Source of the DNA: Escherichia coli
GTDB lineage: Bacteria; Pseudomonadota; Gammaproteobacteria; Enterobacterales; Enterobacteriaceae
Reading direction: 5' to 3' (one strand)
Assembly (NCBI RefSeq): GCF_050320075.1
Contig: NZ_CP190018.1
DNA: 64,000 nt
Shown here: positions 24,031 through 24,940 of the stretch, one piece after another
Layout of the letters: the number at the start of each line of letters is the position of its first letter
How positions within the stretch are numbered: position 1 is the first letter of the stretch
Position numbers and translations under genes: made by a program
The notes under the pieces: generated by a model
Told to the model about the DNA's origin: nothing
What the model saw: the letters and a program-made list of their open reading frames with translations, nothing else
Database searches by the model: none

Positions 24031-24214
24031 GTGATATGTATGAAGTACTTTGGAAGTATAAGTCCATAACTTGTCTCGATGTAGATATACTGCACAACTT
24101 GTTTACAGTATGAGCAAACAATAATTATCATTAAAATTCTTCTTGACCGTTTTACTCCAACTCCCTATAGTAGCGCCCCGTTGCCACCCATGAGGTTTGG
24201 TAGCAAAACAATTT

Positions 24215-24302
24215 GGTGAGGTGTCCGAGTGGCTGAAGGAGCACGCCTGGAAAGTGTGTATACGGCAACGTATCGGGGGTTCGAATCCCCCCCTCACCGC
24301 CA
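24215..24302 (+). tRNA. serW: tRNA-Ser (GGA anticodon)
   Basis: 88-nt GGTGAGGTGTCCGAGTGGCTGAAGGAGCACGCCTGGAAAG...GGGGGTTCGAATCCCCCCCTCACCGCCA; long variable arm, encoded CCA. Confidence 0.95.
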
Positions 24303-24659
24303 TATTTAAAGAAAAGCTCGTACGAAAGTGCGAGCTTTTTTTTCGCATATTGCACTCCAGGGGGGATGAGAAGCCCCGACCGGGGTTCGACAACTGGCGC
24401 AGCCAGTTGGACAGACCACGAACACAGTGAGTGGGCTGCCCGCAGGGCGAGCGAAGCGAGTCAATCCCCCCCTCACCGCCATATTCAAAGAAGAGCTCGT
24501 ACGAAAGTGCGAGCTTTTTTTTCGCATATTGCACTCCAGGGGGGATGAGAAGCCCCGACCGGGGTTCGACAACTGGCGCAGCCAGTTGGACAGACCACGA
24601 ACACAGTGAGTGGGCTGCCCGCAGGGCGAGCGAAGCGAGTCAATCCCCCCTCACCGCCA
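24303..24659 (+). repeat. two tandem ~178-bp units (24303-24481, 24482-24659), each = terminator hairpin + ~110 bp GC-rich segment + last ~18 nt of serW
   Basis: Units near-identical; each ends in tcaatcccccc(c)tcaccgcca and begins with aaagctcgtacgaaagtgcgagcttttttttt hairpin; a third copy of the hairpin follows at 24660. Confidence 0.85.
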
Positions 24660-24940
24660 TATTTAAAGAAAAGCTCGTACGAAAGTACGAGTTTTTTTTC
24701 GCATTTTATCTGCCTGTACGGCAGTGAACGGTATAAAAATCGAGTTTTTCTTTCGGTTGGCTTTCTAAGCTGCCTGTACGGCAGTGAACTCAAATACTAC
24801 ACGTTTAGTCCGTTATTAATAAAGCAAAACCATCTCATTTTCCTGCTGCCACCCTTTTTTATTCTTACCTTCCAGCACCATTAATTATCAACAACTTACC
24901 TTCACCTCCAAAAATAGGGTTTTCACCGCCCCAGCCTACA

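Follow-up and report, generated by a model that had tools for sequence, protein, structure and literature searches.

tRNA-linked repeats (TLRs) are recognised by their 3'-terminal 18-19 bp, which repeat exactly the end of the upstream tRNA or rRNA (PMC8144298). Their first description is credited in PMC8144298 to Egan & Landy (1978), and the catalogue of Rudd (1999), as quoted there, holds 22 TLR copies at ten K-12 loci. One of their products, RttR from the tyrT-tyrV operon, goes back to Bosl & Kersten (1991), as cited in PMC8144298 and PMC3318445. The TLRs rrA, rrB and rrF are about 150 nt long, the last 18 nt being a copy of the stable RNA's 3' end; they are transcribed by read-through of T1, with the 5' end of the RNA at an RNase E site just past the stable RNA and its 3' end just past the repeated sequence (PMC8144298). 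The only function on record for TLRs is the binding of Hfq and CsrA in vitro by the rrn-linked members, and the CsrA binding score is below 0.01 for the 19 TLRs of tRNA operons (PMC8144298).

In K-12 the tyrT/tyrV locus contains four units of the Rfam family RtT (133-137 bits), including the annotated rttR and tpr. The rttR RNA (171 nt) runs from 7 nt past the tyrV 3' end to the CCA with which the repeated tRNA end closes. Three further RtT units (46.3, 46.3 and 36.1 bits) lie in tandem after serX, the second tRNA-Ser(GGA) gene of K-12, and before ycdU. Our literature search found no paper that mentions both serX and RtT, and in the CoCoNuT preprint (PMC10542128) neither RtT nor tyrT is mentioned.

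The repeat array downstream of serW

The sequence analysed here, referred to as the window, is a stretch of 64,000 nucleotides from Escherichia coli (contig NZ_CP190018.1). Its gene order is infA, then serW on the + strand, then the convergent clpA, and serW is the single tRNA-Ser(GGA) found by ARAGORN in the whole window. The features of the locus are as follows.

24143-24171, + strand: promoter-like site upstream of serW, TTGACC, 17-nt spacer, TATAGT (consensus scan, 10/12 matches)
24215-24302, + strand: serW, tRNA-Ser(GGA) (ARAGORN; Rfam tRNA, 53.8 bits; RefSeq annotation)
24308-24343, + strand: hairpin T1 with U8 run, serW intrinsic terminator (inverted repeat; fold)
24345-24481, + strand: RtT/tRNA-linked repeat unit 1, core and tRNA 3'-end copy (Rfam RF00391, 45.1 bits; RefSeq 'RtT sRNA')
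24487-24522, + strand: hairpin T2 with U8 run, second terminator copy (repeat family and inverted repeat)
24525-24659, + strand: RtT/tRNA-linked repeat unit 2, core and tRNA 3'-end copy (Rfam RF00391, 48.6 bits; RefSeq 'RtT sRNA')
24665-24699, + strand: hairpin T3 with U8 run, third terminator copy, variant GTACGAGT (repeat family; terminator scan 24666-24699)
24702-24789, - strand: orphan type I-F CRISPR4.1-2 array, outside the repeat, between the RtT array and clpA (Rfam CRISPR-DR4, 50.1 and 29.7 bits)

A preliminary description of this DNA, made from the letters alone, had proposed two tandem and nearly identical units directly after serW, each composed of a hairpin with a U-run, a GC-rich core and the last nucleotides of the tRNA, with a third terminator copy behind the second unit. 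All of this was borne out. The full repeat unit 1 (24303-24481, 179 bp) abuts the tRNA end at 24302, on the + strand like serW, and is followed by the full repeat unit 2 (24482-24659, 178 bp), to which it is 99% identical, and by the third hairpin at 24665-24699. In the repeat search the 99% identical copies appear as two 179-nt segments, 24284-24462 and 24463-24641, and Tandem Repeats Finder reports an array from 24284 to 24704 with a period of 179 (2.4 copies, 97% matches, score 807). A 55-nt block made up of the tRNA 3' end, the hairpin and the T-run occurs three times, at 24288, 24467 and 24645. The 3'-terminal 18 nt of serW (24285-24302) recur as the 3' end of each unit; the copy closing unit 1 (24464-24481) is identical at 18/18 positions, and that closing unit 2 (24643-24659) is the same sequence minus one C. 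The layout of a unit can thus be read as a terminator hairpin, a structured core of ~120 nt, and the last 17-18 nt of the upstream tRNA.

Repeat search and folding identify T1, T2 and T3 as the same hairpin, and T3 closes the array. Folding of the unit as RNA, which had been put forward as a check, returned this hairpin at -21.2 kcal/mol (z = -6.7 against shuffles) and a core whose structure is backed by compensatory changes. T1 looks bidirectional owing to an upstream A-run, and the terminator scan flagged T3 only, since in T1 and T2 the entire T-run is taken up in pairing with the A-run, so that no T-rich tail is left over. A consensus scan found no promoter-like site inside the units, and the site at 24143-24171 is, on its resemblance to the consensus, the likely source of any transcript entering them.

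The spacing given in the preliminary description was confirmed as well. From serW to clpA there are 343 bp in K-12 and 699 bp here, and the difference of 356 bp corresponds to two units, indicating that K-12 is without units at serW. A spurious expansion of a single-copy sequence during assembly could produce a second unit, and the short-read draft of Escherichia sp. MOD1-EC7003 does break at this repeat, into two contigs and a 237-bp contig (L118, L120 and L119). However, the two-unit structure is present in many independent complete genomes, with a best match at least 99% identical in 138 records, and the units differ at two substitutions and by the C missing from the tRNA-end copy of unit 2, which is not what a duplicated or collapsed stack of identical reads would give. 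Mis-assembly is therefore almost inconceivable as the source of the second unit. In the MOD1-EC7003 draft one contig ends with infA-serW-RtT, the 237-bp contig is the repeat, and a third opens with RtT and encodes a ClpA that is 100% identical to the ClpA of the window.

Identity and structure of the RtT core

Both cores match the Rfam RtT model (RF00391) over its full length, positions 1-130 of 130, with 45.1 and 48.6 bits. These scores are barely at the gathering score (45.1 compared with 45), since Tyr-type units predominate in the model. A 901-bp interval containing the array is 100% identical to E. coli MLI109, where RefSeq/PGAP annotates 'RtT sRNA' twice, at exactly the positions of the two units. 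As in other TLRs, the repeat lies directly downstream of a stable-RNA gene on the same strand, and its terminal 18 bp are identical to the upstream tRNA 3' end, with 18/18 in unit 1 and one C deleted in unit 2. The two units are members of the RtT RNA/TLR family in a tRNA-Ser(GGA)-linked form, and so represent a known and already annotated repeat and RNA family in a strain-variable position. We have high confidence in the explanation of the locus as a whole, which joins this identity to copy-number change by recombination and to an RNA that would be made by read-through. Elsewhere in the window, the segment 9240-9374 (+) scores 140.1 bits with the Rfam model of STnc130, an enterobacterial sRNA whose gathering score is 55.

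Alignment of 110 distinct units allowed the fold of the core to be examined by comparison. The closing stem and the first hairpin switch from AU to GC between the Tyr-type and Ser-type units, and as this switch amounts in essence to a single evolutionary event, the 42 Ser-type units were tested by themselves. In these, 94.3% of the cells pair, compared with 33-53% when the partners are slid by 1-3 columns; the tested structure is the fold of the window sequence, which is itself in the alignment, and this inflates the percentage paired, and to a lesser extent the double-change counts. Both bases had changed in 12 pairs, against 3-6 in the slid controls, and the observed values were reached by 0/500 shuffles. 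The compensatory changes lie mostly in helices 3 (5/8 pairs) and 4 (6/6 pairs). CaCoFold likewise reports covariation in RtT (PMC7657543). Judged by this covariation, the RtT core is a conserved structured RNA.

The same alignment bears on the coding potential of the units. K-12 tpr, of 29 aa, is annotated inside RttR, and it might be proposed that each unit encodes a Tpr-like (protamine-like) peptide from the conserved ATG in GGATGAGAAG. An open reading frame does begin at the homologous ATG in the window (24366-24548, 60 aa), and in some strains PGAP places a 133-aa 'hypothetical protein' across the region. Nevertheless, 1-nt indels separate close homologs within the would-be frame (GGCG-CAG compared with GGCGACAG), which speaks against conservation of the frame; the ATG is a GTG in some units, the variation tracks the pairing of the RNA helices and not codon positions, and the frame continues across the tRNA-end copy and terminator as far as the following unit. 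Translation of the units is accordingly very improbable. The PGAP protein, WP_012602745.1 (133 aa; L127 578-976, L128 623-1021), spans an RtT unit, the terminator and the CRISPR4 repeats and is probably a spurious ORF, and the window ORFs of 60-143 aa that lie over the units look equally spurious.

A degenerate pattern of the core, scanned over species-representative genomes, gave at least 120 loci in many genera of Enterobacterales and in Pseudoalteromonas. Among the matches listed, 171 cores have a tRNA in their locus, and all of them lie behind tRNA-Tyr(GTA) (85), tRNA-Ser(GGA) (75) or tRNA-Ser(GCT) (11, which are those of Pseudoalteromonas), so that RtT cores are found downstream of class II tRNAs, those with a long variable arm, and of no others (171/171). 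The first unit among the matches listed begins 58-95 nt from the tRNA (median 63), later units follow at steps of ~175-183 nt, and the arrays comprise 1 to 5 units. The last 16 nt of a unit agree with its own tRNA with at most two mismatches in 119/171 of the matches listed, and those failing this comparison are mostly the last of their array. Between the tRNA end and the core, again among the matches listed, a hairpin and T-run are present in 44/50 Ser(GGA) and 6/6 Ser(GCT) cases and in 1/57 Tyr cases. The Pseudoalteromonas units linked to tRNA-Ser(GCT) score 44.6 bits (L113 8840-8974) and 41.9 bits (L068 2186-2320), just under the gathering score of 45, so that this branch of the family outside the Enterobacterales would escape standard annotation.

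Two records labelled as other bacteria, 'Martelella alba' (L065; an alphaproteobacterium) and 'Chryseobacterium sp. 18061' (L115; a flavobacterium), contain typical enterobacterial tyrT-linked RtT units, and are likely to reflect contamination or mislabelling.

The core holds more of the tRNA than its end. Both halves of the cognate T-arm are present (GGGG+TTCGA and, ~80 nt further on, AT+CCCCC), together with the acceptor 3' strand and CCA; in the window the halves lie at 24373-24390 and 24464-24481, and the arrangement is repeated in unit 2 and in other loci (L003-L124). The 5' G-run and a CCCC/CTTC/CCTC segment track the identity of the T-stem too, in 81/85 Tyr, 68/75 Ser(GGA) and 11/11 Ser(GCT) units among the matches listed. 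Two further segments are complementary to the T-arm halves, and two mutually exclusive pairings fit equally well.

This composition, following tRNA identity in all three linked types, would be expected if tRNA-Ser genes had been duplicated in tandem and had then decayed, leaving the units as remnants without a function. ARAGORN finds no tRNA in the units, however, and only the T-arm halves and the acceptor 3' strand have been kept; the ~80-nt stretch between the halves is conserved, with compensatory changes, and the same non-tRNA core is common to Tyr- and Ser-linked units. The conserved segment and the common core point to a maintained RNA rather than neutral decay, and we regard remnants without function as unlikely, although an origin from tRNA is itself compatible with the RtT explanation. 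From the sequence pattern it may also be suggested that RtT-core repeats are structured RNAs derived from the 3' half of tRNA, with a function tied to mimicry of the T-arm. This suggestion is speculative and rather unlikely. If the mimicry were functional, the RNA could serve, for example, as a decoy or sensor for enzymes of tRNA 3' processing or T-loop modification, and this would be the first mechanistic handle on a family that has been without a known function since 1978. Both the split T-arm pattern and the confinement to class II tRNAs may already be on record.

Copy-number variation and the question of integration

Comparison with K-12 and other E. coli, also proposed at the outset, gives 0, 1 or 2 units at serW, and the number is not constant among genomes. 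By motif count, K-12 has none, O145 RM9467 and JNE12-007 have one, and the window, MLI109, WCHEC040047, CB6886 and O158:H23 have two; two-unit alleles were verified at four loci. Over 5,426 genomes the frequencies are ~75% for 0 units, ~8-10% for one and ~10% for two, as estimated from match spans in evenly spaced samples (40 and 60 rows) of the ranked match lists. No allele with three or more units at serW was seen in the 40- and 60-row samples, in which rare ones could be missed. A query across the unit junction is unsuited to exact counts, as the search joins non-colinear pieces, and in one match a single unit covered 100% of the two-unit query. The Ser-type core is absent at both serW and serX in 1,747/5,426 genomes (~32%), which indicates that the units are dispensable.

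The 0-, 1- and 2-unit alleles differ by exact whole units, and the boundary is a block of ~65 nt consisting of the tRNA end, the terminator and CGCAT. Units of one array are nearly identical, and variants specific to an array are shared by both of its units, as seen between the window and O158:H23, which indicates lineage-specific duplication or homogenisation. These two observations uphold the earlier proposal of tandem duplication. Since every unit is flanked on both sides by the ~65-nt block of tRNA 3' end and terminator, in direct orientation, whole units could be gained or lost by slippage during replication or by unequal homologous recombination between blocks; this is the mechanism that we infer from the comparison of alleles.

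A unit could have been seeded at serW by recombination with the paralogous serX array. In the one-unit O145 allele the first terminator is of the serW type (GTGCGAGC) and the second of the serX type (GTACGGGC), the pattern expected if a unit and its terminator were imported from a serX-type array by recombination. The serX locus of MLI109 (L129 35984-36175) has only a truncated and decayed unit, fused to the 3' side of dgcT, so that this strain, with two units at serW and a remnant at serX, is the reverse of K-12, with none at serW and three at serX. Mutual exclusion of the serW and serX arrays was considered as a rule and rejected: O158:H23 has eight Ser-type core matches genome-wide, two of them at serW, and 1,747 genomes have none. 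Among the 53 Ser(GGA) arrays of the matches listed, ghrA, the serX neighbour, was detected in 37 loci and infA in two; the usual place of the Ser-type array among these matches is next to ghrA in most species, and the serW position is the unusual one. More generally, RtT cores appear to have spread between paralogous tRNA genes by recombination through the flanking repeats of tRNA end and terminator. Import of the serW units from another species was also considered. The closest units outside E. coli among the matches listed, those of Phytobacter massiliensis, are 96-97% identical, merely 1-2 nt nearer than K-12 serX (95%), too little to argue for horizontal transfer.

The 3' ends of tRNA genes are classic attB sites, and the preliminary description had seen in the repeated tRNA ends the footprint of an integrase, while recognising that no element or integrase lies between them. 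The latter point stands, as the ~160 nt between the copies contain the terminator and the RtT core alone, with no integrase and no cargo. The footprint itself did not survive comparison. Under such a reading the copies would be the attL and attR cores of a decayed or excised phage or island at serW, later duplicated. It is true that serW is used as attB, since O145:NM FWSEC0002 carries, next to a tRNA-end core, an island that encodes a tyrosine recombinase, and in five other genomes the match to the locus begins exactly at the tRNA 3' end. Yet in FWSEC0002 (L131 7638-9240) the order is the end of a multi-kb island, the tRNA-end core, the terminator, one RtT unit, the CRISPR4 array and clpA, so that island and RtT unit coexist as separate features. 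The 118-nt core (24345-24462), which was to be compared with genomic islands and phage att regions, has zero matches in 50,697 phage records and 15 in a plasmid collection (PLSDB); 14/15 of the latter are non-mobilizable and several are chromosome-sized, and the plasmid homology is, judged from these records, not genuine. The segment between the copies is instead an RtT RNA with a covariation-supported structure, and its core is conserved beside tRNA-Ser and tRNA-Tyr genes across the Enterobacterales. Carrying the 3' end of the upstream tRNA is, moreover, the defining hallmark of the TLR family (PMC8144298). Thus serW serves as attB in some strains, and the idea that its RtT units are a footprint of integration is largely refuted and in our view highly unlikely.

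Between the RtT array and clpA lies the CRISPR4 array, at the clpA-infA locus described in PMC3903273. It consists of a perfect repeat (24762-24789), a degenerate repeat (24702-24729) and a 32-nt spacer (24730-24761) that differs from the K-12/O145 spacer. Among strains there are 2-4 CRISPR4 repeats, a number that varies independently of the RtT units. A protospacer search in PLSDB with the window spacer returned one match only, in a 4.9-Mb E. coli record filed as a plasmid, which is probably a chromosome carrying the same array. In O158:H23 (L130 2619-3210) and in one further genome (H121), an IS200C insertion lies directly after the last tRNA 3'-end copy of the two-unit array and replaces the third terminator and the CRISPR4 repeats.

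Proposed RNA production, significance and comparison with known systems

The arrangement of the array suggests how an RNA might be made from it. RNA polymerase starting at the serW promoter would sometimes pass T1 and stop at T2 or T3. RNase E would then cut just after each CCA, and the 3' end would be trimmed as in tRNA maturation, directed by the tRNA-identical end of the unit. The product would be one discrete RNA of ~170 nt per unit, as has been mapped for RttR (tyrT) and RrB (rrnB). Release by RNase E is proposed because the unit ends in a sequence that directs tRNA 3' maturation, and in view of the span of K-12 rttR and the mapping of RrB (PMC8144298). Read-through with tRNA-like 3' processing is, by this analogy, the most likely route. 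T1 is strong (-21.2 kcal/mol and U8), and read-through may be rare.

For genome annotation the result at serW is routine. It does mean that tRNA 3'-end repeats downstream of tRNA-Ser and tRNA-Tyr genes are not to be taken as integrase scars. The serW-clpA spacer is polymorphic in length, with 0, 1 or 2 RtT units and 2-4 CRISPR4 repeats, and it breaks short-read assemblies; this is relevant to typing schemes based on the clpA-infA CRISPR locus. The natural copy series, 0, 1 or 2 at serW and 0 to 3 at serX, offers isogenic-like material for testing function.

When the locus is set beside the attL/attR duplications found at tRNA genes, the two are alike only in that the 3' end of an intact tRNA gene is repeated, in direct orientation, further downstream. 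In contrast to such duplications, the serW units have neither an integrase nor cargo with them and show no homology to phages or islands, their spacing is ~178 bp where kilobases would be typical, and the intervening DNA is a conserved structured RNA. The TLRs rrA, rrB and rrF, which lie between the dual terminators of rrnA, rrnB and rrnD, share with serW the succession of stable-RNA gene, T1, TLR and T2 (PMC8144298), but they have an unrelated core, are linked to 5S rRNA and bind Hfq and CsrA (PMC8144298).

The RtT repeats of tyrT-tyrV are nearer. Like them, the serW units are ~178 bp long, stand in tandem head-to-tail directly after a tRNA gene and have the conserved core motifs GGATGAGAAG..CGAC..GGTTCGA...CCCG.AGGGCGA; the closing stem pairs the 5' G-run with the tRNA-derived 3' end, and every unit ends with the last 18 nt of the upstream tRNA including CCA. 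[quoted passage not shown] The serW units differ in being linked to tRNA-Ser(GGA), in a core only ~65% identical to the Tyr type, in one internal hairpin that is ~10 nt longer, and in the strong hairpin and U-run terminator before every core, where Tyr-type units have unstructured spacers; these differences account for an Rfam score that is only at the threshold. The closest counterparts are the K-12 serX units, to which those of serW are 93.2% identical over the 118-nt core (BLAST) and 95% over the first 100 nt. The two arrays follow the same tRNA species and have the same architecture, including the terminator hairpin, and they differ in locus, with serW units lying between infA and clpA instead of on the ghrA side.
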